A stretch of DNA of 37,923 nt from Candidatus Moranbacteria bacterium RIFCSPHIGHO2_01_FULL_54_31. Lineage in GTDB: Bacteria > Patescibacteriota > Minisyncoccia > Moranbacterales > UBA1568. The DNA is taken from contig MFRV01000002.1 of assembly GCA_001784695.1 (NCBI GenBank), forward strand, positions 1 to 37,923, written 5' to 3'. Made by a program: the position numbers and the translations under genes. Under the pieces are notes generated by a model. That model was not told where the DNA came from. It ran no database searches and was given only the letters and a program-made list of their open reading frames with translations. The stretch's first letter is position 1. Each line of letters starts with the position of its first letter. Shown here piece after piece: positions 4,991 through 33,264 of the stretch.

Positions 4991-5037
4991 TGTTATATAT
5001 ATATTGTTATATCTGTAATTATCTAACCTCAAGCAGC

Positions 5038-5235
5038 ATGGATGAAACAGTCTTGAAAAAATTGGCGGAGCAGGAGCAGAAGATCGACGCCATCTACGCG
5101 TCCGTCGAGAAAACGCGCAAGTATTTCTTGTGGACGCTCATCACATCGCTTGCGTTCTTCGTTCTGCCTCTGATCGGGCTTACGTTCGCGATACCGTTCT
5201 TCCTCAACACGCTTGCGGCCTACAGCGGCCTCTAG
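5038..5235 (+). CDS. Small membrane protein (coiled-coil plus hydrophobic segment), unknown function
   Basis: MDETVLKKLAEQEQKIDAIYASVEKTRKYFLWTLITSLAFFVLPLIGL...; genome-typical codon usage. Confidence 0.8.
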   Translation: MDETVLKKLAEQEQKIDAIYASVEKTRKYFLWTLITSLAFFVLPLIGLTFAIPFFLNTLAAYSGL

Positions 5236-5295
5236 TTCCTGAGACGATGCCGAGATGGTATACTGAGAGCATATAAACCGTTAAATAGAGAGCAT

Positions 5296-5646
5296 ATGAA
5301 TACGCGCTTTTTGTTCAAGGGAGTGGAGATCGATGGGCGGACACAGGAGTATGTCCTGAAACGGCTGGAGAGAGTGGAAAAGCTGGTTGATCCGGTAAGC
5401 GAGTTCGAGGTAGAGGTGGATAGGGATAAAAAGGGAAAGTTTCGCGTCGAGATAATGATAAAAACGCCGCATAACCTCTATCGTGCCGAAGAGACATCGG
5501 TCAGCATAGAGGGCTCGACGGATATCGTGATCGACGAATTGGAAGTCCAGATTGCCAAGCAGAAAAACAAGCATCATGATTTGAAGCTGCGTGGCAACCG
5601 CTCCATCAAGAAGAATCTCGTAGTGGACGAATCCGCTCGCTTTTAG
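5296..5646 (+). CDS. raiA: Ribosome hibernation factor RaiA/HPF (short form)
   Basis: S30AE-like pattern (YVLKRLERVEK...FRVEIMI...YRAEE...SIEGSTDIVIDELEVQI); upstream of secA. Confidence 0.85.
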   Translation: MNTRFLFKGVEIDGRTQEYVLKRLERVEKLVDPVSEFEVEVDRDKKGKFRVEIMIKTPHNLYRAEETSVSIEGSTDIVIDELEVQIAKQKNKHHDLKLRGNRSIKKNLVVDESARF

Positions 5647-5667
5647 TCTTCCTCAATGATTTCCGGG

Positions 5668-5821
5668 TATCACATCCTTGAGAGCAACCTTCCAGAGAGA
5701 TGTTCCTTTGTCCCAGCGGACAAACTCACTGCGTGAAAGTCTCGCAATCCGCCTCAGAAGGCGGAACCATGCTTGCTCAACTTTCAAGCCTCTCTGGAAG
5801 ATTCTCTCTGCAGATGTGATA
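5668..5821 (+). repeat. Structured ~150-nt repeat element, copy A
   Basis: P1 AACCTTCCAGAGAG/CTCTCTGGAAGATT; P2 TTTGTCC-CAGC-GGACAAA; P3 TGAAAGT..GCAA/TTGC..ACTTTCA; P4 CCGCCT-CAGA-AGGCGG; bulge AACCATGC; outer stem TATCACATC/GATGTGATA. Confidence 0.85.
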
Positions 5822-5961
5822 TGAAACATCCTCTTTGACGGGTGCTTTTTTGTTTGCTATCCTTAAATGGTTATTGGCTTGAAAAAGGGATGTTTTGTGT
5901 TTTCTTTATCTCTTTTGTTTCTGTCAAGATGCTAAATTCAATATTCTAGATTCTATTCCTT

Positions 5962-8619
5962 ATGGCATTTTTGGAAAAACTCTTCGGATCGAATGAACGG
6001 GAAATAAACAAATTCCGGCCGCTGGTAGAAACAATCAATGCTTTCGAACCCGCGCTCAAGGCGCTCTCCGATGACGAGCTGAAAGGCAAGGCTGCAAGTT
6101 TCAAGGGGCGCTTGGCGGCAGGCGAGACGCTCGATGATATCCTGCCGGAGGCGTATGCGGTGGTGCGCGAGGTGGCAGAGCGCGTGATCGGCGAGCGGCA
6201 CTATGACGTGCAGCTGTTGGGCGGCATCGCGCTCCACAATGGCAAAATCGCCGAGATGAAGACCGGCGAAGGCAAGACGCTGACCTCGACGCTCCCGATC
6301 TATCTGAATGCGTTGACCGGCCGCGGCGTGCACGTGGTGACGGTGAACGACTATCTCGCCAAACGCGACTGCAACTGGATGGGACGGGTGTACGAGGCGC
6401 TCGGCTTGACTTCCGCCTGTATCGTGGGCCAGGGCGTGTCGTATCGCTATGAATCGCATATCACGGATGAGTCGGCCGTGACGATCGAGATGGAGAACCT
6501 GATTCCGGTGACGCGCCGCGAAGCCTATGCGTCCGACATCACTTATGGCACCAACAACGAATTCGGTTTCGATTATCTGCGCGACAATATGGTGGCGGAG
6601 CTTGCCGAGATGACGCAGCGGGAGCTCAATTTCGCCGTCATCGACGAAGTGGACTCCATCCTGATCGACGAAGCGCGGACGCCGCTCATCATCTCCGCGC
6701 CGGACAGCGAATCGACCAAGCTCTACGAGCAGTTCGCCCGGATGGTGCCGCGCCTCACAGCCGAGACGGATTATGTCGTGGACGAGAAGATGAAAGTGGT
6801 GACGCTCACCGACGAGGGAATGAACCATATGGAGAAGCTTCTCGGAATGGGGAATATCTACGCTTCCGGCAATATCCAGTACGTGCATCATTTGGAACAG
6901 TCGCTCAAGGCGCAGATCATCTTCCATCGGGACCGCGATTATGTCGTGAAGGACGACCAGGTGATGATCGTGGATGATTTCACCGGGCGCCTGATGCCGG
7001 GACGCCGCTACAGCGAAGGCTTGCACCAGGCATTGGAAGCCAAAGAAGGGGTGACCGTCCAGCGGGAATCCCGGACGCTCGCGACGATCACCTTTCAGAA
7101 TTATTTCCGTCTCTATGGAAAATTGTCGGGGATGACCGGTACGGCGACGACGTCGGCCGAGGAATTCGCCAAAGTGTACAAGCTCGATGTCATCGAGATT
7201 CCGACCAATCGCGTGATGGTGCGCAAGGATCTGCCGGATATCGTGTACAAGACGGAGGAGGCGAAGTTCCGCGCCATCGTCGATCGCGTGAAAGAGATCC
7301 ACACGGATGGACAGCCGGCACTCATCGGTACGATCGCCATCGAGAAGTCCGAATACCTGAGCGTGCTGCTCGAACGCGAAGGGGTGCCGCATGAGGTCCT
7401 GAATGCCAAGAACCATGAACGGGAAGCGGTAATCGTCGCCAATGCCGGACAGAAGGGCGCCGTGACCATCGCGACCAATATGGCCGGGCGCGGTACGGAT
7501 ATCAAGCTCGGCGACGGTGTCCGCGAAGTGGGCGGGCTGTTCATCATCGGTACGGAGCGTCATGAGGCGCGGCGCATCGACAATCAGCTCCGCGGCCGCG
7601 CGGGACGGCAGGGCGATCCGGGAGCCTCGCAGTTTTTCGTGTCGCTCGAGGATGAGCTGATGCGGCGTTTCGGCGGCGAAAAAATGAAAAGTATGATGAC
7701 GACGCTCGGACTGCCGGAAGACGAACCGATCCAGAACGGTCTTATTTCCAAAACGATCGAGAGCGCGCAGTCGAAGATCGAGGGTTTCAATTTCGATATC
7801 CGGAAGCACGTGCTCGAGTACGATGACGTGATGAACAAGCAGCGCGAAGTCGTCTATCGCAAAAGGAAGAGCGTGCTCGCACAGACGACTTTCCGCGATG
7901 AGACGCTCGCTCTTTTATCCGAGGAATTGGATCATGCGATCGGTTTCCACACGGCGAGCGAAGAGGCTCTGTGGAATATGCCGGAGATCGTCGCTGAGGC
8001 GAACGGCCTGTTTCCGACACTCGATGAGAAGGAGGCTCTGAAGCGGCTCGAGATGATCCGCGACGACCGTTCCAAGGATGAGATGGAAAAGAAGGGTTTG
8101 ATTCTCGAGTATCTGATGGGCGAGGCGAAAAAAGCCTATAGCGGCCAAGAAGCGGCTTTCAGCAAGGATATCTGGAACAATATCCAGAAAGCGCTCTACT
8201 TGCGTTCGCTCGATACGCTCTGGATGAATCACCTCGACGAGATCGATTATCTGCGCCAAGGCATCGGACTGCGCGGCTATGGCCAGCGCGATCCGCTCAT
8301 CGAATACAAGCGCGAGGCGTATGATCTCTTCCTCGGGCTGATGGATGCCGTGCGCAAGACGTACCTGATGACGATTCTCAAAGTCGGACCGGCGACGAGC
8401 GTACCGGAGCAGGCGGCTCCGCGCGAGATACAGCTCCGCGGCGCAAGCGAGGATATCGAGCAGTTCAGCGCCCCCCAGGGGGGTGAAGTGGCCGCATCGG
8501 GTGCCGAGCAGGGCGAAGCGCCGAAGCAAGAGCCTCTCGTGAACACCGATACCGTCGGCCGCAATGATCCCTGTCCGTGCGGATCAGGGAAGAAGTATAA
8601 AAAGTGCCATGGGAAGTGA
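5962..8619 (+). CDS. secA: Preprotein translocase ATPase SecA
   Basis: [56 protein letters not shown]-terminal [17 protein letters not shown]. Confidence 0.98.
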
Positions 8620-8620
8620 T

Positions 8621-8845
8621 ATGCTCAAATTAGGAAAATACAGGCATTACAAGGGGAAAGAATACGAGGTGATCGGTGTAGCTAAGCACAGCGAAACACT
8701 GGAAGATCTGGTCGTGTATCGGGCGCTATACGATTCGGAGGAGTTCGGTGATAAAGCGCTGTGGGTGCGTCCGCAAGCGATGTTTCTCGAGGAGATAGAA
8801 ATCGATGGCAAAAAGGCTTTGAGATTTGAATACATCGGAGGGTAA
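8621..8845 (+). CDS. DUF1653 family protein
   Basis: GKYRHYKGKEYEVIGVAKHSETLEDLVVYRALY...LWVRP..MF signature. Confidence 0.88.
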   Translation: MLKLGKYRHYKGKEYEVIGVAKHSETLEDLVVYRALYDSEEFGDKALWVRPQAMFLEEIEIDGKKALRFEYIGG

Positions 8846-8861
8846 TTTTTTGGGAGGCGAT

Positions 8862-9266
8862 ATGGAACAGGAAAAGTTCTATGCAGGCGGGTTTTTGTAT
8901 AATCCAGAGACCAGAGCAGTGCTGCTTCACTTGAGGGATGGACACACAGAGGTGAACCCTCACAAGTGGGGATTTTTTGGAGGGGAAAGTGAGGGAAAAG
9001 AAACGCCAGAAGAATGTTGCATACGCGAATGGAAAGAAGAACTCGCTATTGATGTCGATGCACAGGAATTGATTCCGCTCTGTGATTATTTGAATACTGA
9101 TCGCGGCGTATAGCGCTTTGTGTTTTATAAAAAAAGCAACCTGGAAAAATCACAGATGACTCTTGGTGAAGGAGCGGATTTTGAGTGGATTGCTCTTGAA
9201 AAGGTTTTCAGATATGATTTGACTGAAAAAACGAGGATGGATTTGGAGAAGTTTATTGAAAATTAA
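8862..9266 (+). pseudogene. Nudix hydrolase interrupted by an in-frame TAG (9111-9113)
   Basis: Nudix box GGESEGKETPEECCIREWKEEL; the frame continues after TAG as RFVFYKK...LGEGADFEWI...EKTRMDLEKFIEN to TAA 9264-9266; SD GGAGG. Confidence 0.8.
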
Positions 9267-9293
9267 AAACCTCCGAGTCATAGTGACTGGAGG
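9265..9293 (-). terminator. Intrinsic terminator (minus strand)
   Basis: Minus strand CCTCCAGTCA-CTA-TGACTCGGAGG followed by TTTTT. Confidence 0.7.
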
Positions 9294-9426
9294 CGGTGTG
9301 TGGGCTTCCGCTCATTGGCGGAAGAAGGGAGGCGAGGAGAGGAGTGATGGGAGGAGAAAGACGTTGTCTTTTTGTTGCGGTGTCTAAGCAGACACAAATT
9401 GTTTCCCATACTCCCCATTCCTCGCA
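9265..9426 (-). ncRNA. Candidate ~160-nt small RNA
   Basis: Lies between a minus-strand promoter and a terminator; folds into a three-way junction plus two hairpins; no well-spaced SD-led ORF. Confidence 0.55.
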
Positions 9427-9431
9427 CTTGG

Positions 9432-9460
9432 AGTATACTACGGGAAGGGGATTGTGGCAA
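9432..9460 (-). promoter_or_regulatory. sigma70 promoter
   Basis: TTGCCA-17 nt-TATACT on the minus strand. Confidence 0.65.
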
Positions 9461-9463
9461 GGC

Positions 9464-9763
9464 TTATTTTTTCGGATAGGTTCTTCCGAGGTTGAACACC
9501 ATAGTGAGGAGGTATTCGAGCCTATCCGGTCCTTCTCGTTCACGCAATGCGTCGATGTAATTCTCTATTTCCTCCGGAAAATCCAGGACTTCGTGCGCGA
9601 CGACTATATCTGGGGACTCGCCAGCCTCTCCCCAATACTGACGATCTTTCTCCAAAGAATCGCAGCGACTGTCAGTGAGGACTGGAGCAAATTCGAAGAT
9701 GATGTAGTGCGGCGGATAGAGAAGGTTCTCTCCCGGCCTGAGTAGGGTAAAGTGGATAGGCAT
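9464..9763 (-). CDS. Hypothetical 99-aa acidic orphan protein
   Basis: SD AAAGGAG 7 nt upstream of ATG; protein-like composition. Confidence 0.65.
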   Translation of the reverse strand: MPIHFTLLRPGENLLYPPHYIIFEFAPVLTDSRCDSLEKDRQYWGEAGESPDIVVAHEVLDFPEEIENYIDALREREGPDRLEYLLTMVFNLGRTYPKK

Positions 9764-9796
9764 TGGAAAGCTCCTTTCGGTTGAGATGAACTGTTG

Positions 9797-9830
9797 TCAG
9801 CTAATCATGGATCAGCTAATCATGGATTAG
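9797..9830. repeat. Perfect 15-bp tandem duplication
   Basis: TCAGCTAATCATGGA x2 then TTAG; includes the palindrome CTAATC-ATG-GATTAG. Confidence 0.85.
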
Positions 9831-9915
9831 AGGAAAAGTCAATATTTCTCTTCGGCGCGGGAGATGTCATTTTTGGAAAAGAGATTTTAGCAGCGGAGAG
9901 CCTTACCTCGATTGA

Positions 9916-9943
9916 TTGACTTTACCTTTAGATATGCTAAAAT
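9916..9943 (+). promoter_or_regulatory. Probable tRNA promoter
   Basis: TTGACT-16 nt-TAAAAT with TGn extended -10. Confidence 0.55.
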
Positions 9944-10035
9944 TCGTGTGTTTTGGGATCTCGTCTTGCTCGCTTTTCTCGCTCGCCAAAGCTTTTGAGA
10001 TGGAGAGATTCACGATTCTTGATTCCGAATGAAGG

Positions 10036-10109
10036 GGGCCTGTAGTCTAGTGGTAAAACAGTGCATTCGCATTGCACAGCCGGCGGTTCGATTCCGCCCA
10101 GGTCCACCA
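10036..10109 (+). tRNA. tRNA-Ala(CGC)
   Basis: Acceptor GGGCCTG/CAGGTCC with G3:U70, anticodon arm GTGCA-TTCGCAT-TGCAC, T-loop TTCGATT, encoded CCA. Confidence 0.96.
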
Positions 10110-10142
10110 GAGAGAACTTTTGCGCAAAGTTGAGAATACCCT

Positions 10143-10781
10143 ATGGAGAAGATGTTTCCCAATCGAGTTCTGCGATGTCTGCGTGAATTTCCAGTCGTGC
10201 TTTTTCTCGTGTTTTCCGCACTCTGGGTATATCTCGCTATCAATCCTCTGTATCGGGAAGCGTGGATGTTTGAGAATATCGTGATCGCGCTCTTCGCGCC
10301 GATGGTTGTTTGGAGTTACTTCGCATTCCGGCTCTCGAATATTTCGTACCTCCTCATTTTCATCTTCGCTTCGCTCCATATCCTGGCAGCGCACTATACC
10401 TATGCCGACACGCCGTGGGGACGCTTTATTTCCGAGTTGTGGGGTCTTGAGCGGAACCACTTCGACCGGGTAGCACATTTCCTCTACGGACTATTTATGG
10501 TGGCGGTTTTTTCCGATCTCCTCAAGAAATATCTCCCGAAGGAGAAATGGGCGGTCGGGCTGTTTCTCTTCGCCATCTCGTTCTCTGTCGGCGCGCTCTA
10601 TGAAGTAGGAGAGTTCGTCGTCGGCGTCGTGGGCGACCCCGAGGCGGGACTCGCGTTCCTCGGGTTCCAGGGAGATATCTGGGACACGCAGAAAGATATG
10701 GTGCTCCAGGGTATCGGTGCGATATGCGGCATCCTTTCCCTGTTTTTCTTTGCGAAAATATCTCCCGAAAAGAAAGCGTAA
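10143..10781 (+). CDS. DUF2238/YjdF-like inner membrane protein
   Basis: W.FEN, HILAAHYTY, RNHFDRVAHF, YEVGE, FLGFQGDIWDTQKDM motifs. Confidence 0.88.
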   Translation: MEKMFPNRVLRCLREFPVVLFLVFSALWVYLAINPLYREAWMFENIVIALFAPMVVWSYFAFRLSNISYLLIFIFASLHILAAHYTYADTPWGRFISELWGLERNHFDRVAHFLYGLFMVAVFSDLLKKYLPKEKWAVGLFLFAISFSVGALYEVGEFVVGVVGDPEAGLAFLGFQGDIWDTQKDMVLQGIGAICGILSLFFFAKISPEKKA

Positions 10782-10799
10782 GCATTCGCTATCGCCACA

Positions 10800-11600
10800 A
10801 TGACCATTGATACGGTTTTTTCAATATGGATTCGCGTTACCCGGATACTCATTCTGGTCTATTTTGGATTCGGGGCGTACCTCTTTTTTAACCAGCGGAA
10901 CCTCCTCTACTTTCCGGCACTCGGCGATCCGGAAGCGTGCGAAGCGTTCGCAAAGACAGGAGCGGAGAAAATCGTCCAGAACGGAACGATGCTTTATTAC
11001 AAGAAGAATGGCGGGACGATCGTCGTGTTCTACCATGGGAATGGCGGAACGGCATGCGATCGGAAATTTCTCGCCGATGAGTTCGACCGCGACAGTCTCT
11101 CGTATCTTTTTGTGGAGTATGCGGGGTATGCGGATGATCGCGAGACGACGAAAGAAAATGTTCTTCAGGATGTGCGAAACGCTGATGACTTCCTCCGGAC
11201 GATTTCATATGAGAAGCTTGTGTTTGTAAGCGAGAGCCTCGGGGCGGGGCCGCTCGCGTACCATACGACACGTCGGCTGCCGGAGAAAATAGCGCTCATC
11301 GCGCCATACACGAGGATAAGCGATATCGCGAAGGCGCATTTCCCGTACTCGCTCTATCCGGCAACGCTTCTCGTGAGAGACGATTTCAATACCGTTTTGC
11401 TCGATGCATTCCGCGGAGAGACGCTTGTCATTCACGGAACGGCCGATGAAATCATTCCATTCGAGCTTGGAAAAAGGTTGTATGAAATGATTCCTTCAGA
11501 GAGAAAAGAATCTCTTTTTGTGTCGGGCGCGACGCACAATATGGTGCTTAATGTTCCGGGCGTGATGGAAAGTCTCCTCCGGTTTCTCCGGTCAGAGTGA
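10800..11600 (+). CDS. Membrane-anchored alpha/beta hydrolase (ABHD/BEM46-like)
   Basis: N-terminal TM, QRNLLYFP, YHGNGG, EYAGY, nucleophile ESLG, IHGTADEIIP, GATHN. Confidence 0.85.
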   Translation: MTIDTVFSIWIRVTRILILVYFGFGAYLFFNQRNLLYFPALGDPEACEAFAKTGAEKIVQNGTMLYYKKNGGTIVVFYHGNGGTACDRKFLADEFDRDSLSYLFVEYAGYADDRETTKENVLQDVRNADDFLRTISYEKLVFVSESLGAGPLAYHTTRRLPEKIALIAPYTRISDIAKAHFPYSLYPATLLVRDDFNTVLLDAFRGETLVIHGTADEIIPFELGKRLYEMIPSERKESLFVSGATHNMVLNVPGVMESLLRFLRSE

Positions 11601-11696
11601 TCTCGCTTGCGGATTGTCAAAAAGAGGCGCGCGATTCGAGAATGGGATGCTTAGATAGAGTTCCAATTGAGTAGGATATAGTATAATCCACATTTA

Positions 11697-11734
11697 AAAA
11701 ATAACACCCCCGTACGCGGTTGCGTATCGGGGGG
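11697..11734 (-). terminator. Probable intrinsic terminator for the minus-strand orphan
   Basis: CCCCCGTACGC-GGTT-GCGTATCGGGGG preceded by an A-rich tract on the plus strand. Confidence 0.5.
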
Positions 11735-11759
11735 ATACAGGCGGCTGAGGCTAAAAAGC

Positions 11760-12278
11760 TCAGGAGTAGGTCTGTCCGTAGTGGCGGACAGGTGAACGGA
11801 GCAGGGTTTTTTCAGGCTCATCCCGCATGCTGTCGCCAGGGGCGTATGTTATCGTGTCGACAAATGCCACCATCGTGTGTTTCAGAAAATTCAGCATATT
11901 GCGCAGTTTGCGTTTGATGCTTGTGAATTTGTTAGCGGAGCGGTACAGGGCGCGACAGATATCTCTCACGCGCTTTTTCGAATCGTGAAATACTTCCGTA
12001 TTGAGATGTGCCTTTTTGGCAAGACAATACAGGTATATCCGGCAGATATAGCTGATGATGCTTTGCGCCGTATCGCGATCGCGGCAGCCATGGAGGATAT
12101 CTCGGCTTATGCTGCGAACTTCATCGAAATTGGGAACCCGTGCTTCCGGCATCATCCAGTGGCGTATGCGCTGTTGCAGTATCGGCAGCATATGGTCAGG
12201 GATGGGATGTCCCATCATCGGGGTTCTCAGTGTTGCGCATATCGTGTTATGTCGCATGGCAATATTACCTTTCGTCAT
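11760..12278 (-). CDS. Hypothetical basic orphan protein
   Basis: 172-aa ORF filling the gap between the hydrolase and rplI, with a hairpin downstream; no recognisable family; the opposite-strand ORF competes. Confidence 0.45.
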   Translation of the reverse strand: MTKGNIAMRHNTICATLRTPMMGHPIPDHMLPILQQRIRHWMMPEARVPNFDEVRSISRDILHGCRDRDTAQSIISYICRIYLYCLAKKAHLNTEVFHDSKKRVRDICRALYRSANKFTSIKRKLRNMLNFLKHTMVAFVDTITYAPGDSMRDEPEKTLLRSPVRHYGQTYS

Positions 12279-12429
12279 TGTATTGTTAAGGAAAGAAGCT
12301 CTTTAAACTGGCTAGCCGGTCTTTTGGCTGCCAAGAGCTTAGCTATAGGAAAGCATTTCTACGGACGCTTGTCAAAAGGCTCTGGATAGGGTAGACTGGG
12401 GCGAGTAAATAGTTTTGATGAATCCTGAT

Positions 12430-12870
12430 ATGAAAGTCATTCTTTTGGAGGACGTGGCGAAATTGGGCAAGGCCGGAGAGGTCAAAGAAGTGCGTAACGG
12501 ATACGGATTCAATTTTCTGCTGCCGGCCGGTCTGGCGGAATTCGCGACGCCTGCAGGCATCAAGCAATCGGAGAGGGTGATCGCGAAGCGCCAGAAGGAG
12601 CTCGAGACGGTGGCTACGGATGCCAAGACCAAGGCCGTGGCACTCGCGGGCAAGACCGTGACCGTCAAGATGAAAGCGGAAAACGGCAAATTGTTCGGCT
12701 CGGTAGGGCGCGAGGAAATCGCAGCCGCAATGAGTGCGATGGGCATAGAGGCTGACGCGGAAAGCATCACGATCGATAAGCCGTTCAAGGAACTCGGCAC
12801 TTTCCCGGTGGAAGCGAAGCTCGGGCACGGCGTGAAAGCCGCCTTTCAGGTGACGATCGAAGCCGCATAA
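12430..12870 (+). CDS. rplI: 50S ribosomal protein L9
   Basis: MKVILLEDVAKLGKAGEVKEVRNGYGFNFLLP; GKLFGSV. Confidence 0.96.
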   Translation: MKVILLEDVAKLGKAGEVKEVRNGYGFNFLLPAGLAEFATPAGIKQSERVIAKRQKELETVATDAKTKAVALAGKTVTVKMKAENGKLFGSVGREEIAAAMSAMGIEADAESITIDKPFKELGTFPVEAKLGHGVKAAFQVTIEAA

Positions 12871-12898
12871 GACTCATTGAAACAGCATCTTTAACAAG

Positions 12899-12930
12899 CC
12901 CGCCCGTACCGAACGGTACGTTCGGGCGGG
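12899..12930. repeat. REP-like GC-rich palindrome
   Basis: CCCGCC-CGTACCG-AA-CGGTACG-TTCG-GGCGGG. Confidence 0.6.
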
Positions 12931-12984
12931 AGCCGCTCCCTTCCCTTGCTCGGAACGGCGGTTCTTTCTCTATAAAATATATTT

Positions 12985-14643
12985 ATGGTGAAACAAACGA
13001 AGCGGACGAAATTCATTTTTGTGGTGGGCGGCGTGATGAGCGGCGTCGGCAAAGGCGTCACGACGTCTTCGATCGGCAAGATCCTGCAGGCGCGCGGCCT
13101 GTCCGTGACAGCGCTCAAGATCGATCCGTATATCAACGTGGATGCGGGTACGATGAACCCGACGGAACACGGCGAGGTCTTCGTACTGAAAGACGGGGCG
13201 GAAACCGATCAGGATATGGGCAATTACGAGCGCTTCCTGAATATCGAGCTCGATCGCGACAATTATATGACCACCGGGCTGGTGTACAAGACGGTCATCG
13301 AGAAAGAGCGCAATCTCGAGTATGAGGGAAAATGCGTCCAGGTGGTGCCGCATATCCCGCTCGCGGTCATCGCGCGCATTAGGCGGGCGGCGAAAAAGAA
13401 CAAGGCCGATGTGGCTATCATAGAGATCGGCGGGACCGTCGGGGAATACGAGAACATCCTGTTTCTCGAAGCGGTGCGTATGATGAAGATCGAGCACCCG
13501 GAAGATGTCATCACGGTGATGGTGAGCTATATCCCCACGCCGTCGAAAGTGGGCGAGATGAAGACGAAGCCGACCCAGCACGCGGTGCGGACGCTCAACG
13601 GCACCGGTATCCAGCCGGATATCATCGTGGCCCGCGCCGATCGCCCTCTGGATGAGAAACGCAAGGAGAAGATCGCCGTGTTCTGCAGCGTGCGCAAGGA
13701 AGACGTCATCAGTGCGCCGGATGTGGAGAGCATCTATGATGTGCCGCTCAATTTCGAAAAAGATCATCTGAGCGATATTTTGGGCAAGAAGCTCGGTCTG
13801 AAAATGAAAAGAGCGGATGGCGGACTGAAAGAATGGGAGCGCTCTGTCAGGCGCATCCATACCTCCAAGAGCGAAGTGCATATCGGCATCGTCGGAAAAT
13901 ATTTCAAGACCGGGGATTTCGTCTTGAGCGACGCATACATAAGCGTCATCGAAGCGCTCAAGCATGCTGCCGGGCGCGTCGGCAAGAAAGCCGTCCTTAC
14001 CTGGATCGACAGCGCCGGCTTCGAAGAAAGTCCCAAGAAGCTTGCCGAGCTGAAGCAGTACGATGGTATCCTGATCCCGGGTGGTTTCGGCGCGCGCGGC
14101 ATCGAGGGGAAAATATCCGCCATCCGCTATTGCCGCGAGAACAAGATCCCGTATTTCGGTCTCTGCTACGGTATGCAGCTGATGGTCATCGAATACGCCC
14201 GCCATATACTGGGATGGAAAGGCGCCCATACCACCGAGGTCAGTCCGGATGCGACGTATCCGGTCGTGGATATTATGCCAGCCCAGAAAGAGAATCTGCG
14301 TAAGAAAAATTACGGCGCGACGATGCGTCTCGGGCATTATGAAGCGAAGCTCGTGCCGAAAACGATCGCGTACGGAGCCTATGGTACCGGCAGCGTCCTC
14401 GAGCGCCATCGCCATCGCTATGAAGTCAATCCGGCCTATGTCGAGGATCTGAAGAATGCCGGGCTGGTATTTTCCGCCACATCGCCCGACGGCGTGCTGA
14501 TGGAAGTCGCCGAACTGCCGAAAAAGAAACACCCGTTCTTCCTGGCGAGCCAGTTCCATCCGGAATTCCAATCTTCGCTCCTCCGTCCGCATCCGCTCTT
14601 CGTCGCATTCCTCAAAGCCGCAAGCAGTTACCGAAAAAAATAG
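12985..14643 (+). CDS. pyrG: CTP synthase
   Basis: GGVMSGVGKG, KIDPYINVDAGTMNPTEHGEVFV, KTKPTQH, GLCYGMQ, ERHRHRYEVN, QFHPEF. Confidence 0.98.
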   Translation: MVKQTKRTKFIFVVGGVMSGVGKGVTTSSIGKILQARGLSVTALKIDPYINVDAGTMNPTEHGEVFVLKDGAETDQDMGNYERFLNIELDRDNYMTTGLVYKTVIEKERNLEYEGKCVQVVPHIPLAVIARIRRAAKKNKADVAIIEIGGTVGEYENILFLEAVRMMKIEHPEDVITVMVSYIPTPSKVGEMKTKPTQHAVRTLNGTGIQPDIIVARADRPLDEKRKEKIAVFCSVRKEDVISAPDVESIYDVPLNFEKDHLSDILGKKLGLKMKRADGGLKEWERSVRRIHTSKSEVHIGIVGKYFKTGDFVLSDAYISVIEALKHAAGRVGKKAVLTWIDSAGFEESPKKLAELKQYDGILIPGGFGARGIEGKISAIRYCRENKIPYFGLCYGMQLMVIEYARHILGWKGAHTTEVSPDATYPVVDIMPAQKENLRKKNYGATMRLGHYEAKLVPKTIAYGAYGTGSVLERHRHRYEVNPAYVEDLKNAGLVFSATSPDGVLMEVAELPKKKHPFFLASQFHPEFQSSLLRPHPLFVAFLKAASSYRKK

Positions 14644-14647
14644 GCAT

Positions 14648-15196
14648 ATGCAACCATTTGAAGGAATGCCGAATAATCAAACGGAAGCCCAGGGACTCTT
14701 TGCTGAAGATCAGCAGGATCGCGAGAATGGTCTCGACAAATCTGATCCCGCGCTCTTCGCCGAAAGAGAGAAAGCTCGTTATCAAAAAGCGCAAGAAATG
14801 TTTGCTCAGTACGAGCAAAATCCTCAATCTTTGTCTGCACAAGATGTGTTTCATCTGGCTTTTTTATTCCAGCATGGGCAGATACCAGAAGATTATAACA
14901 AGGCGAATATATTAGCCCTTGATGCAGAGAATCGCGGGGTTGAAGACGCAAAGTGGCTCTCGGCTGCTGCGGAGGATCGCTATCTCGTTTCCCTGGGGAA
15001 ATCGCAGAAATGGGGAACGCAATTCGTCCGAACTGAAAAGGGATGGCAATATGCTGCTCCTCTCGAGGATGAGGCGGTTTCCGGAATTACTGACGAGATG
15101 AGACAAGACAAGAACGTCCCTGCCAGGAATAGCCAGCTCCAAAAGATTGCGGAGATATACCCTGAGCCTTTGAGTGGCTTGGATGATGAAAAGTAA
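14648..15196 (+). CDS. Hypothetical protein with a DRYL...Q.WGTQF motif (DUF6624-like)
   Basis: AFLFQHG, WLSAAAEDRYLVSLGKSQKWGTQF; more AT-rich codons than its neighbours. Confidence 0.75.
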   Translation: MQPFEGMPNNQTEAQGLFAEDQQDRENGLDKSDPALFAEREKARYQKAQEMFAQYEQNPQSLSAQDVFHLAFLFQHGQIPEDYNKANILALDAENRGVEDAKWLSAAAEDRYLVSLGKSQKWGTQFVRTEKGWQYAAPLEDEAVSGITDEMRQDKNVPARNSQLQKIAEIYPEPLSGLDDEK

Positions 15197-15226
15197 AACA
15201 CCCTGACAGAACGTGCAGGGTATTTT
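15195..15226. terminator. Intrinsic terminator-like hairpin
   Basis: AAAACACCCTG...CAGGGTATTTT. Confidence 0.55.
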
Positions 15227-15252
15227 CTTGAGAATAAAAAGAGGTTTTATCG

Positions 15253-15403
15253 AAGCCTCCCTACCGCAAGAATCTTCCCGGGAGTCAGTCGTTTGCCCCA
15301 GCCGGCAAACTCCTTTATGAACTTTTTTCGATCCGTCGAAACGACGGCACCGTGCTCGAAAAAACTTCAACTCTCCCGGGAAGATTCTTGCGGCAGGAGG
15401 TTT
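15253..15403 (+). repeat. Structured ~150-nt repeat element, copy B
   Basis: P1 CCGCAAGAATCTTCCCGGGAG/CTCCCGGGAAGATTCTTGCGG; P2 TTTGCC-CCAGCC-GGCAAA; P3 TGAACTTTTTTCGA/TCGAAAAAACTTCA; P4 CCGTCG-AAA-CGACGG; bulge CACCGTGC. Confidence 0.88.
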
Positions 15404-15430
15404 TCCTTTTGTGACATCGTGTGAAAAAGG

Positions 15431-15583
15431 CGAAAACCGCCCTCCATCAAAGGTTCCGGGAACTTGAAATTTTTTTGAGCACGGTTCCTGATTCTGATCA
15501 GGATCAAAAAAATTTCATGAGCGAAATCTCGGCTGGGAGATTTCGTGGGTCCCGGAAGCTTTCGGATGGAGGAGCAGTTTTCG
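15431..15583 (-). repeat. Structured ~150-nt repeat element, copy D (inverted)
   Basis: Minus strand: TTCCGGGA/TCCCGGAA; CGAAATCTC-CCAGCC-GAGATTTCG; TGAAATTTTTTTGA/TCAAAAAAATTTCA; CCTGAT-CAGA-ATCAGG; bulge AACCGTGC; outer CCTCCATC/GATGGAGG. Confidence 0.88.
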
Positions 15584-15595
15584 GAAATAATAGAG

Positions 15596-15622
15596 AAAAA
15601 ACACCCGCACGGGGTGTTTTTT
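15596..15622 (-). terminator. rpmA terminator (bidirectional type)
   Basis: AAAAAACACCC-GCACG-GGGTGTTTTTT. Confidence 0.75.
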
Positions 15623-15635
15623 GATTGGGAAGCGG

Positions 15636-15935
15636 TTATTTCTTGGCTTTGGCGGCTTTTTGCGGGATGACGTGGACGAACATCCGCTGTGCCAGCTTGC
15701 CGGTGAAATCCTTGATCTTCTTGGTCTGGAACTCGACGGTGCCTGAGACGAGAGCGAACAGGGTGTCATCCGCGCCGCGCTTGACGTTTCTGCCAGGGTG
15801 GAATTTGGTCCCGCGCTGACGGATGATGATATTGCTGACCGCGACCGCTTGCCCGCCGAAAATCTTGACGCCGAGACGCTTGGAAATGGAATCACGGCCG
15901 TAGGAAGTTGATCCGCCTGCTTTTCTGGTTGCCAT
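15636..15935 (-). CDS. rpmA: 50S ribosomal protein L27
   Basis: [28 protein letters not shown]...[13 protein letters not shown]...GADDTLFAL. Confidence 0.97.
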
Positions 15936-15981
15936 AGTGCTGAAAGCTTACGTATTACCGAAGTTTTATGTATACTGGATG

Positions 15982-16009
15982 AGTATATCATATCGGCGCG
16001 TTTTGTCAA
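15982..16009 (-). promoter_or_regulatory. rpmA promoter
   Basis: TTGACA-16 nt-TATACT with TGn on the minus strand. Confidence 0.65.
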
Positions 16010-16033
16010 TTCCGCCTTATCTATGCACTACAT

Positions 16034-16474
16034 ATGCTTGATCTGACCTTGTTATCCAGAGCGAAAGAATGGGGCATCGGCCATCGGAAGGACATCGCGC
16101 TTCTGGCGGGTGTTCTGCTTACGGGGACGCTGGCTTTCGAAAGCGGGGTGCTGCGCGGCAGCCTGGAGCAATCAGAGCCGCTCGTCATCTCGCTTCCGGC
16201 TCCGACAGAAAGAGATCCGGCCGTGCTCTCTGAAACTGCCGAAACAGGCGCGAAAACAGGAGGGGGTACGGTTGCGGGGGTGGCACAGGCGGTAGCGCTA
16301 GCCGGCAAGCCATCAGGCGATGCGGCCTGCCCTTTCGTCGGGAGCCGCAATTCGAACAAATACCACCTTTCTACCTGCGCGGTCGCCAAGAGGATCAAGC
16401 CCGAAAACAGGGTCTGTTTCGCTTCACAGGAAGAGGCACAGAAACGCGGCTATGTGGCGAGCTGTATCAAGTAG
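16034..16474 (+). CDS. Membrane-anchored protein with a C-terminal Ada metal-binding-like domain
   Basis: N-terminal TM, low-complexity linker, FVGSRNSNKYHLSTCAVAKRIKPENRVCFASQEEAQKRGY. Confidence 0.8.
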   Translation: MLDLTLLSRAKEWGIGHRKDIALLAGVLLTGTLAFESGVLRGSLEQSEPLVISLPAPTERDPAVLSETAETGAKTGGGTVAGVAQAVALAGKPSGDAACPFVGSRNSNKYHLSTCAVAKRIKPENRVCFASQEEAQKRGYVASCIK

Positions 16475-16521
16475 GGGGAACGAAGGTTATGTGGCATAAT
16501 GAAGGGGGAAAAACAAAAAAG

Positions 16522-31130: not shown

Positions 31131-31158
31131 ATTATACCAGTTCTTTGCGGTTTGTCAA
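31131..31158 (-). promoter_or_regulatory. Consensus sigma70 promoter embedded in the recR 3' end
   Basis: TTGACA-16 nt-TATAAT with TGn; the -10 overlaps the recR stop codon. Confidence 0.7.
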
Positions 31159-31728
31159 GGATGAGACAAGGGTCAGCTCGTCGGCATATTCGATGTCGCC
31201 GCCGGTCGCCATACCGCGGGCGATGCGGGTGACCTTGATATGCATCGGCTCAAGTTTTTTCTTGAGATAGAGAGCAGTCAGATCGCCTTCCGTGGTCGGG
31301 TTGGTCGCCAGGATGACTTCTTGGATGCCATCGTTCTCCACCCGATTCAGGAGTTCGCTTACGCGCAGATTGCCGCTGTTGTCATTCTTGCCGCTTTCCA
31401 AGAGGCCGCCCAAGACGTGATACAGCCCCTGGTAGGTCCCGGTGCGTTCGATGGCGATGACATCGAGCGGCTCTTCGACGAGACAGAGCGTGTCGGTCTG
31501 GCGCTTCGGATCGGCGCAGATAGCGCAGAGCTCGCCTTCCGCGATATGGAAGCAGCGGACGCAGCTTTTCAGATGATGCAGCTCCTCGAGGCTCTCGGCG
31601 AAGCTCTGCAGTTTCTCCTCGTCCTGCTTGAAGAGGTAGAGCACGATGCGCTCGGCCATTTTCGGACCGACGGAGGGGAGGGCGGAAAAGTGTGCGATCA
31701 GGGATTGGAAGACTTTGGGGTAATGCAT
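31132..31728 (-). CDS. recR: Recombination mediator RecR
   Basis: LPSVGPKMAER HhH, C4 zinc finger CVRC..CAIC, TOPRIM VEEPLD, ATNPTTEGD, DIEYADELTL. Confidence 0.96.
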   Translation of the reverse strand: MHYPKVFQSLIAHFSALPSVGPKMAERIVLYLFKQDEEKLQSFAESLEELHHLKSCVRCFHIAEGELCAICADPKRQTDTLCLVEEPLDVIAIERTGTYQGLYHVLGGLLESGKNDNSGNLRVSELLNRVENDGIQEVILATNPTTEGDLTALYLKKKLEPMHIKVTRIARGMATGGDIEYADELTLVSSLTNRKELV

Positions 31729-31743
31729 ATTGGTTTTTTTGAT

Positions 31744-31889
31744 GAGTTTTACAGCCAATAATCTTTCCGAGAGACACTCGCTCGTCCAGCGACGAACTCA
31801 CTTCTGAAACTTTCGTGATCCGTCGAAACGACGGAACCATGCTCACGAAAGTTTCAAGCCTCTCTGAAAGATTTTGGCTGTAAATACTC
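31744..31889 (+). repeat. Structured ~150-nt repeat element, copy C
   Basis: Outer TTTACAGCCAA/TTGGCTGTAAA; P1 AATCTTTCCGAGAG/CTCTCTGAAAGATT; P2 TCGTC-CAGC-GACGA; P3 TGAAACTTTCGTGA/TCACGAAAGTTTCA; P4 CCGTCG-AAA-CGACGG; bulge AACCATGC. Confidence 0.88.
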
Positions 31890-31905
31890 TTGCGATAAAG
31901 ATATT

Positions 31906-33264
31906 TCAGCCGTGGATTTTTTCGAGGGATTTGAAGGTGGTGGAGTTTTCGTCGAAGTACAGGGAGATCTTGCCGACCGGACCGTTACGGTGCTTGGCAA
32001 CGATGATGTCGGCGATATTCTTGTTGGGGGTGTCCGGCCGTACGCGGTCTTCGCGGTAGAGGAACATCACGACGTCGGCATCCTGCTCAATGGAACCGGA
32101 TTCGCGCAGGTCGGAGAGTTTCGGCACCTGATCCGGTCGGGATTCCACGGCGCGCGACAATTGCGAGAGGGCGATGACCGGGATATTCAACTCGCGGGCG
32201 AGCTGCTTCAGTCCGCGGGAGATCTCGGAGATTTCCTGGACGCGGTTGTCTCCCTTGCTGCTACGGCCTTCCATCAGTTGCAGGTAGTCGACGATGATGA
32301 GGCCGAGATTGTGCTCGGCCTGCAGGCGGCGCGCCATCGTGCGCATCTCCATTATATTCAGCGACCCTGAGTCATCGATGAAGATCGGGGCCTCGGAGAG
32401 CACTCCCATAGCGTCAGAAATGCGCTCAAAGTCGTTATTCGGCCCCTCACTCGAGAGTTTTCCGGTACGGAGCTTCCAGAGGTCGACTCCGGCCTGGGCG
32501 GCGATCATACGGTCGACGAGCTGGTCAGAGGACATTTCCAGGGAGAAGACGCCGACCGGGACTTTGGAGTGGATGCCGACCTGGCGGGCGATATCGAGGG
32601 CGAACGTCGTCTTGCCGATAGACGGGCGCGCGGCGAGGATCAGGAGATCGGATTTCTGCAAGCCGGCCAAGAGCGCATCGAGATCCGGAAAATGCGTCTG
32701 GACGCCGCGGAAGGCGTGATCGCTTTTGTGCAGCTCATCGATACGGTTGAAGGCGATCTCCAGGATGGATTTGATCGGTACGAAATCTTGCTTGATGTAT
32801 TTCTGCGACACCGCGAAGACTTTCTGTTCCGCTTCGTCGAGCAGTTTCTGGACGTCTTCGGATTCGTCGTAGCCCATCTCGATGATATCGCTTGCGGCCG
32901 AGATGAGGCGGCGCAGGAGGACTTTCTTCTGGACGACTTTCGCGTAGTGGGCGACATTGGTTGCGGAGGGGACGGAGTTTACGAGCGAGGCCAGGTAGCT
33001 TGATCCGCCGACGCGTTCCAGTTGGCCTTTTTCTTCGAGCTTGTTGGCGAGCGATAGGACGTCGATTGGTTCGCGATCCTCATAGAGGGCGAGCATCGTC
33101 TCATAGATCAGGTTGTGGTCGTCCTTGTAGAAATCACCGATCTTCAAGAGGTCAGCCACCTTGATGATCGCGTCCTTGTCCAGCATCAAAGAGCCGAGTA
33201 CGGACGTTTCGGCTTCGAGGTTGTGCGGAGGAACGCGGAGATGTTCGGTCTTGGATGTAGCCAT
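31906..33264 (-). CDS. dnaB: Replicative DNA helicase
   Basis: PPHNLEAE, AARPSIGKT, FSLEM, IVDYLQLM, LSQLSR, SDLRESGSIEQDAD, KHRNGP; no intein. Confidence 0.98.
   Translation of the reverse strand: MATSKTEHLRVPPHNLEAETSVLGSLMLDKDAIIKVADLLKIGDFYKDDHNLIYETMLALYEDREPIDVLSLANKLEEKGQLERVGGSSYLASLVNSVPSATNVAHYAKVVQKKVLLRRLISAASDIIEMGYDESEDVQKLLDEAEQKVFAVSQKYIKQDFVPIKSILEIAFNRIDELHKSDHAFRGVQTHFPDLDALLAGLQKSDLLILAARPSIGKTTFALDIARQVGIHSKVPVGVFSLEMSSDQLVDRMIAAQAGVDLWKLRTGKLSSEGPNNDFERISDAMGVLSEAPIFIDDSGSLNIMEMRTMARRLQAEHNLGLIIVDYLQLMEGRSSKGDNRVQEISEISRGLKQLARELNIPVIALSQLSRAVESRPDQVPKLSDLRESGSIEQDADVVMFLYREDRVRPDTPNKNIADIIVAKHRNGPVGKISLYFDENSTTFKSLEKIHG

Follow-up and report, generated by a model that had tools for sequence, protein, structure and literature searches.

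Copies of a branched palindrome and their neighbours

Beyond the hpf stop codon (position 5646), and ahead of a weak terminator-like hairpin and a promoter-like site for secA, the window (the whole 37,923-nucleotide stretch that was analysed) contains the first of four copies, A to D, of an element of ~155 nt. The source genome, G000, has 724,422 bp in 36 contigs, is 92% complete, and has the window as its contig 2. A preliminary description, made from the letters of the window, had placed four intergenic copies in it; all four are located there by a covariance model, R1, whose boundaries are given in Table 1, and in their alignment the mean column identity is 69%. The neighbouring genes, as identified by Pfam, are hpf and secA for A, L27 for B and C, and dnaB and recR for D. 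In what follows 'drawn strand' is the C-rich strand given in the preliminary description (+ for copy A), and 'complement' is the opposite, G-rich strand.

Table 1. Features of the window that belong to, or adjoin, the four copies
Feature	Position	Strand	Remarks
Copy A	5664..5824	+ (drawn strand)	Model R1, 124.5 bits
Copy A, hairpin P2	5707..5724	+	TTTGTCC/GGACAAA, loop CAGC 5714-5717; invariant C-C-A-G-C is 5713-5717
Copy A, P3-P4 domain	5731..5788	+	P3 TGAA.../...TTCA; apical P4 5748-5765; internal loop A-A-C-C-A-T-G-C 5765-5772
Promoter-like site upstream of secA	5835..5863	+	TTGACG, 17 nt, TATCCT; site scan
Copy B	15250..15407	+	159.4 bits; downstream of an unnamed 182-aa ORF and that ORF's hairpin
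B-C spacer	15408..15429	.	22 nt; small hairpin CCTTTT...AAAAGG; moves along with the B-C composite
Copy C	15430..15583	-	105.6 bits; inverted relative to B; downstream of rpmA (L27)
rpmA terminator-like hairpin	15596..15622	-	Copy C lies beyond the hairpin
Copy D	31738..31894	+	159.1 bits; between dnaB (31906-33264, -) and recR (31132-31758, -)

The promoter-like site beside copy A lies outside the element, marking its right-hand neighbourhood, and belongs to secA; by eye, a TTGAC..TAnAAT arrangement is also present upstream of secA in relatives. The site scan gave no promoter-like site at or in copies B, C and D, and neither a promoter-like nor a terminator-like site near D, whose drawn strand is antisense to both dnaB and recR. 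Copies B and C have the 3′ ends of their drawn strands pointing toward each other. Copy B is 96% identical to a copy on contig 34 of the same genome, and the closest relative of copy C, at 92.7%, is the partner copy in a similar composite in another species, G004; in a third, G064, the spacer between the two copies is altered yet, by eye, still hairpin-like. The public runs listed as containing 5650-15600 comprise six of DNA and none of RNA. Contigs from four public DNA runs, examined over 5000-16500, confirm copy A with its flanks and break inside copy B; none of them joins across an element, and an empty allele was not seen among them.

Some other features of this stretch may be recorded here. 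The contigs of all four runs have an additional C after 15270, which restores a bulged C of the closing stem (GCAAGCAATC) that is absent from the window's copy B. The 182-aa ORF (14648-15196), between pyrG and rpmA, has no Pfam match, is confined among 30 loci to those of G000 and G064, with part of it in G024, and accompanies the B-C composite in both G000 and G064. The sole Rfam match in the window is a tRNA gene at 10036-10106.

Fold, covariation and the choice of strand

RNAalifold gives the same architecture from the four window copies as from 13 copies. A long closing stem, P1, of ~35 bp encloses the hairpin P2, with loop C-C-A-G-C, and the stem P3 (UGAA/UUCA), in which an internal loop, with a single base facing (A)ACCRUGC, precedes the apical hairpin P4 (CC..GG). 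That is the arrangement of P1, P2, P3, asymmetric loop and P4 proposed in the preliminary description. Against its own shuffles, copy A folds with z = -6.7 on the drawn strand (+) and -8.9 on the complement (-).

Are the stems kept paired through changes in sequence, as had been proposed from four copies? Among 101 copies from 36 genomes, which are related to each other and whose alignment was fitted to the model, the 45 consensus pairs provide 4501 pair cells, and 91.3% of these hold standard pairs, as compared with 69.0% in shuffles, none of 500 of which reaches the observed value, and 36-52% in slid controls where partners are moved by 1-3 columns; the covariation score is 0.607, as against 0.207 for the shuffles and at most 0.145 for the slid controls. 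Both measures thus stand above their controls in the larger set. Changes on both sides occur in 43 of the 45 pairs; within P2 all seven pairs vary, six of them with both-sided changes. In DNA palindromes, compensatory changes can also arise without selection, via template switching between the arms, and because of this covariation alone does not prove selection on an RNA fold.

The unpaired positions are a separate matter. In the internal loop the conservation over 100 copies is A 96%, C 100%, C 97%, R 95%, U 93%, G 98% and C 99%, and the first C of the P2 loop is kept in 97% of the same number, so for these motifs the near-invariance noted from four copies carries over. The CUC linker is moderately conserved only, and the four outer stems, which had been called unrelated, have the inner half of P1 (CAAGCAAYCUUYC / GRAAGAUUCUUG) in common with most copies. 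P1 also has a bulge and a mismatch or wobble, both of them conserved; its outermost 10-20 nt vary by subfamily, with no conservation of terminal sequence. When mutual information is computed for every pair of columns, an extra P1 pair, 31/129 (UA 34, CG 29, AU 18), and a junction pair, 68/123, come out. Pairing of the P2 loop with the internal loop as a pseudoknot was considered, and the same scan gave no link between these two loops, both of which scarcely vary. Three copies, two in G000 and one in G064, have an additional hairpin in the internal loop, always at the same point. This is a real family, constrained on its fold and on the identity of its loops.

A short peptide starting from the R-U-G of the internal loop, with a frame of 14-20 codons seen by eye in A, B and D, was also considered, and was dropped because the codons downstream track the covariation of the stem and not a protein.

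Which strand is it that folds? The preliminary description had drawn the C-rich one, and it is its complement that folds better: 99 of 100 copies have the more stable fold there (means of -72.9 versus -60.7 kcal/mol), and the count is again 99 of 100 when DNA energy parameters are used. G.U pairs number 4.5 per fold on the complement and 1.4 on the drawn strand, and when only the 45 consensus pairs are counted, 89 of 101 copies favour the complement and 9 the drawn strand. The position 25/135 of P1 illustrates the point: on the drawn strand it is C.A in 53 copies, U-A in 32 and C-G in 8, and on the complement this becomes the usual wobble series U.G, U-A, C-G. Over all consensus pairs the drawn strand has 76 G.U cells versus 154 A.C cells, with a smaller contrast, 16 versus 23 position-types, when counted by position. 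Read on the complement, the loops are GCUGG in the hairpin and GCAYGGUU in the internal loop. The conclusion is that a single-stranded form is under constraint, with the complement the likelier strand, and this is a lean and not a proof.

Distribution, insertion and movement within one lineage

A profile built from the four window copies finds nine more in the source genome, a total of 13 in 724 kb, and R1 scores all 13 at E <= 2.6e-27; eight further R1 matches there are weak opposite-strand echoes of those same places. In 29 of 36 other species of the genus the family is also present, with from one to at least 21 copies per genome among the matches listed, and seven sister species are without it. 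The preliminary description had proposed such a covariance-model check for copies beyond its four, and the answer is ample: across the sampled genomes the data set has >190 model matches. Outside the genus matches are few. Of 24 genomes from other genera in the same search, one has a match; in a scan of the order (150 genomes drawn, plus G000) 11 of 151 do: seven of the ten from the genus, a single genome in each of two sister genera, and one of the 129 that lie outside the family-level group.

A strict motif pattern was also run on 185,579 one-per-species genomes, and gave 44 stretches. Moranbacteria or Moraniibacteriota records hold 34 of them, a Patescibacteria MAG holds four, and another four come from a single MAG whose title is uncultured Bdellovibrionales, as it is for many hpf relatives; the remaining two, in a Lachnospiraceae MAG and in Phytobacter, are taken as chance. 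In viral contigs the pattern has no match. The range of the family is restricted to a single lineage, of genus level, within Candidatus Moranbacteria (CPR/Patescibacteria).

It had been thought that the element was no known riboswitch or ribozyme, and no Rfam 15 family matches the copies. At gathering scores the window yields nothing but its tRNA, and copy A together with nine other copies, at E up to 10, gives weak unrelated matches, the best with E = 0.25. Resemblances to hammerhead, twister and hairpin ribozymes and to group II domain 5 were considered, and were dropped because Rfam has no match. A search, within a limited library, of the literature on Moranbacteria, Patescibacteria and the candidate phyla radiation found no such repeat.

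Copies are found in short intergenic spacers, usually 0-60 nt from a stop codon and filling the whole spacer. By eye, the other copies of the source genome adjoin atpD/atpC, dnaJ, recJ, RNase HII/nusB, murJ, a gene for a Ctp-type protease, and xth; the one inside the atp operon is 3 nt past atpD and 10 nt short of atpC. They are scattered singly or in inverted pairs among housekeeping genes, with no cassette arrays. By crude ORF calls, 99 copies divide into 68 in co-directional spacers (43 sense and 25 antisense for the drawn strand), 16 in convergent and 10 in divergent spacers, and five with a flank missing; the spacers of G000 overall are 61% co-directional, 20% convergent and 20% divergent. 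From these counts orientation is weakly biased, and promoter spacers, with 10 of 94 copies versus 20% of genome spacers, are mildly avoided. Along the 939-kb contig of G033 no clear orientation switch is seen when the copies are read from their coordinates.

How constant is occupancy at one place? The hpf-secA spacer has the element in G000 and in none of 29 other species, in 25 of which secA is next after hpf, and relatives have an hpf terminator hairpin where copy A sits. At pyrG-rpmA two of 29 other species have the element, and the rest keep a single terminator-like hairpin in ~90 nt. At atpD-atpC it occupies 4 of 29 loci, in one orientation in G000 and G009 and in the opposite one in G017 and G062; eight loci have spacers of only 5-30 nt, and those of G006, G011 and G034 have, by eye, apparent truncated remnants of the same subfamily. 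In several species the spacers on either side of atpD hold the same subfamily. By tblastx of flanks, there are ~18 groups of copies lying between the same two genes in different species, with the same orientation in some groups and opposite orientations in others, often within one subfamily. Across species such same-spacer copies keep their structure and loops, and the adjacent non-coding DNA does not align. Nearly all detectable copies have intact loops, including those at one spacer in several species, and intact loops in copies that persist so would also fit a host function. Same-spacer occupancy may reflect repeated insertion and not descent, because unrelated hairpin families occupy the same atp spacer. 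A metagenome scan with hpf gave 26 loci, none above 82% identity, and therefore no strain-level empty site; neither among these loci nor among the DNA-run contigs was there a pair of empty and filled alleles close enough to give exact junctions.

In the hpf-secA spacer of G025 (L041) and of G008 (L043) there is a second long-stem hairpin repeat of ~90 nt, with core TTTAGGGAAMCC ... GGTTCATCYAAAA, which occupies the spacer where G000 has copy A; it is present also in the upstream flank of L090, and a regular expression did not find it in G000. The atpD-atpC spacer (L281-L309), whose length varies between 5 and 186 nt across 29 species, holds at least three other hairpin-forming repeat types in different species. 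G002, G004, G005, G012, G036, G061 and G064 have AT-rich TTGAAAATT-type palindromes, G025 and G033 have a GATAAG...CATCACTCATCA type, and G024 has one of GTTAACG type. It seems that hairpin repeats gather in these compact genomes at a small number of permissive spacers.

When 101 copies are placed in a tree, those of G022, G014, G011 and G000 have clades of their own and the species are intermingled in other subfamilies; 42 copies have their nearest neighbour within their own genome and 59 have it in a different one. The G000 clade consists of copy B and two others that are 94-96% identical, and because of this some copies are recent. The composite of B, spacer and C (335 bp) recurs in G004 at another locus with unrelated flanks, where 311 of 332 positions (93.7%) are identical, spacer included among what is conserved, in two genomes whose rpmA genes are 78.8% and pyrG 3′ ends 76.1% identical. 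Between the two composites there are compensatory changes in P4 of B and in P2 of C. In G064 the composite is at the same locus as in G000 and is 78.2% identical. All the inverted pairs noted (in the window, two in G004, and in G064, G035 and G138) have the 3′ ends of their drawn strands facing. One copy of G022 (L095, 1301-1457) has its P3-P4 domain, and no other part, turned round with respect to P1 and P2; insertion cannot produce this, and so it is a case of in-place inversion between the inner hairpin arms. Beside an intact copy on contig 11 of G000, at ~9205-9230 (-), there is by eye a 22-nt remnant of a B-type 5′ arm (AAGCCTCCCGACCACAAGCAGC). The preliminary description had contrasted the family with a recently copied MITE. 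That contrast is not supported, in view of the bursts, the copies at 94-96% identity, the species-variable insertions, the 93.7% composite and the remnants. From its bursts, variable insertions, shared composite and remnants it follows that the family acts as a dispersed mobile repeat.

What might mobilise it? The window was said to contain no cognate enzyme, and this is borne out. A partner elsewhere of the HUH or reverse transcriptase type had been suggested, and the searches do not support it: neither PF01797 (Y1/RAYT) nor PF00078 (reverse transcriptase) was found in G000, G014, G017, G025 or G033, five high-copy genomes. PF01797 is in 13 of 41 genus genomes (10 of 29 carriers of the element versus one of seven non-carriers, G001-G036) and PF00078 in 16 of 41 (11 of 29 versus three of seven), and neither tracks the element across the genus. 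The same five genomes have no PF07282 (TnpB), PF01548 (IS110) or PF01609 (IS4/IS5-type DDE), and PF00665 (rve) is in two of them; the partner search comprised these five Pfam families plus PF00665, with G000 itself at 92% completeness. Within a genome no gene recurs beside copies, and half-element profiles run on G000 revealed no separated halves and none flanking an ORF.

The arms of P1 are inverted repeats, yet have no conserved terminal sequence, unlike transposase-bound inverted repeats, and R-box-like conserved ends are absent from the copies. The best flanking direct repeat of 100 copies has the same length distribution as that of mismatched flanks, giving no sign of target-site duplication in a test which fuzzy ends weaken. 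Ends called by a fold-based finder are unreliable, as it over-extended the elements to a median of 211 nt.

As to the genus at large, reverse transcriptase genes with open frames of ~290-570 aa are present in 16 of its 41 genomes (e.g., G023:C8, G004:C16, G005:C19), and might be parts of diversity-generating retroelements; Y1-like ORFs, weak ones of 215-243 aa, are in ~9 genomes.

What the repeats may be and may do

In attC sites the fold is conserved over the sequence, and imperfections in the stem mark one strand. The family is like them in keeping its fold while its sequence varies, and its stem imperfections recall theirs. However, attC sites form cassette arrays beside an integrase and have conserved R boxes, and the Moranbacteria copies occur singly or in inverted pairs and have variable ends.

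Nearer likenesses are with small dispersed repeats. In one survey, bacterial repeats of 100-200 bp are described as giving long stem-loop transcripts, with effects on mRNA stability and mostly no proven transposase (PMC2229807). The 127-bp imperfect palindromes ERIC/IRU resemble the present family in size, in being a long palindrome, in intergenic location within transcription units and in both orientations, in a copy number that varies widely between related species, and in having no proven transposase; the likeness is one of features, and none in sequence would be expected. According to the same survey, ERIC transcripts affect mRNA stability, and ERIC has short terminal inverted repeats, TA ends and target duplications (PMC2229807, Table 1). 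None of these three end features was seen in the Moranbacteria family, which differs further in its branched core with two near-invariant unpaired motifs. With REP/REPIN sequences, as portrayed in two papers, it shares being a hairpin-forming extragenic repeat, long vertical persistence, and inverted doublets as units (PMC3337134, PMC3116915). REPs, according to a third, are palindromes of 20-40 nt tagged GTAG or CGTC (PMC3733652); they accompany a single-copy Y1 (RAYT) gene, whereas the Moranbacteria unit is of 155 nt, branched, and without PF01797 in the five high-copy genomes. The CIR elements of Caulobacter and Brucella have a two-arm branched transcript with a short motif in a loop, are partly MITE-like, and are given in the survey's section on them as of unknown mobility mechanism (PMC2229807). 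The branched transcript and the conserved short motif exposed in a loop are the points of likeness; the CIR motif is a GANTC methylation site, the lineage is another one, and no closing stem of ~35 bp is described in that section. Correia/NEMIS elements of Neisseria, in the corresponding section, are 100-155 bp long, are co-transcribed, and form long stem-loops cut by RNase III (PMC2229807); their conserved 24-bp terminal repeats, TA duplications and IHF site were not seen in the Moranbacteria family. What sets that family apart is its branched core, its two near-invariant and similar motifs, its strand asymmetry, its travelling composite, and that no mobilising gene was detected in the families searched.

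The reading which we consider fairly probable is that these are lineage-specific, palindromic, branched intergenic repeats of ~155 bp, non-autonomous and dispersed in a structure-dependent manner, of the kind of ERIC/IRU, REP/REPIN, CIR and Correia elements. By a like judgement, on balance favourable, they would be a new structured variant within the small palindromic dispersed repeats, with a mobilising factor that the searches did not reveal. As the observations above show, copies insert in short intergenic spacers and multiply in genome-specific bursts; they can persist at one spacer across species, a given spacer may have them in either orientation, a two-copy composite can move between lineages, and copies decay to remnants. 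Changes of orientation may come about, at least partly, via in-place inversion between hairpin arms. Selection would act on how one of the strands folds, the G-rich complement being the likelier of the two; its GCUGG and GCAYGGUU loops would present two similar single-stranded motifs at a three-way junction as putative recognition points for a trans-acting factor by which the element is copied or protected. The closing stem of an inserted copy would be co-transcribed with the neighbouring genes, in either orientation, and probably acts like REP/ERIC hairpins on the stability or processing of mRNA 3′ ends. The hairpin would likely also serve the host at the RNA level, though only secondarily.

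Could that host role instead be the primary one? A cis-acting RNA module which sets mRNA 3′-end stability, processing or translational coupling in operons, for instance through an RNase III cut in the ~35-bp P1, with its mobility incidental, would account for copies lying 0-60 nt from stop codons and filling spacers, for the one in the atp operon, for the same subfamily at both spacers flanking atpD in several species, and for same-spacer copies that keep structure and loops beside non-coding DNA that is unalignable; the shortage of copies in divergent spacers and the placing of copy A where relatives have the hpf terminator hairpin point the same way. However, between co-directional genes there are 25 antisense copies for 43 sense ones and a single spacer may hold either orientation, with loops that are strand-specific; seven of 36 sister species lack the family altogether, most orthologous spacers are empty, remnants show copies to be dispensable, and a 93.7% identical composite at an unrelated locus of another species is unlike a locus-bound regulator. 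On this evidence we regard it as unlikely that such a module is the primary explanation, including the version with an RNase III cut. Less is to be said for a small ribozyme of a new type, or a trans-acting structured RNA gene in multiple copies. The three-way junction, invariant unpaired nucleotides and strong covariation, the resemblance of the G-rich, wobble-containing strand to a typical structured RNA, and the variable extra hairpin tolerated at one internal-loop point in three copies would suit it, but there is no Rfam match on either strand at E up to 10, all known self-cleaving classes included, no promoter-like site at or in B, C and D, a copy number of 0 to >20 among sister species, and no covariation between the two conserved loops, which hardly vary. 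It is accordingly held to be very improbable.

If the constraint is on DNA, the element might be a folded single-stranded site, like attC, the attP hairpin of CTX phage or a plasmid single-strand origin, used by a recombinase, primase or polymerase in replication or DNA uptake. With this would agree the strand asymmetry, which holds with DNA parameters, the conserved bulge and mismatch or wobble of P1, recalling the extrahelical bases of attC, a fold conserved where sequence is not, an orientation largely independent of transcription, and the lack of a transposase or reverse transcriptase, in the families searched, from high-copy genomes. Yet the copies are single ones among housekeeping genes, being neither cassette arrays nor one attachment site, their ends have nothing like R boxes, and the long contig of G033 has, as far as its coordinates tell, no clear switch of orientation; a site of this sort is distinctly improbable. 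Rather doubtful too is the proposal that the two invariant motifs at the three-way junction are the handle of a mobilisation free of transposase and reverse transcriptase, or the binding site of a lineage-specific protein. These bacteria are DNA-scavenging and have competence machinery, and in one version nuclease-resistant folded single strands would be taken up by it and built in at replication forks. If true, that route would account for an element which stops at the hairpin's foot and has no target duplication, for the transfer of a whole two-hairpin composite between species, and for the keeping of fold over sequence. The alternative, a junction bound by a lineage-specific protein, would if true be a new class of RNA or ssDNA element.

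Returning to the dispersed palindromic repeat as the favoured reading, what does it mean for these organisms? CPR genomes are among the smallest and most tightly packed known, and this lineage tolerates up to twenty or more structured repeats of 155 bp, with other hairpin families in the same spacers. In annotation, the covariance model would flag such spacers, which could then no longer pass for riboswitches or small RNA genes. As a clean set that can be aligned, the family lends itself to study of how repeats spread, flip and persist; it could serve to separate selection on a fold from the self-repair of palindromes, and help to find the factor that reads the invariant loops.
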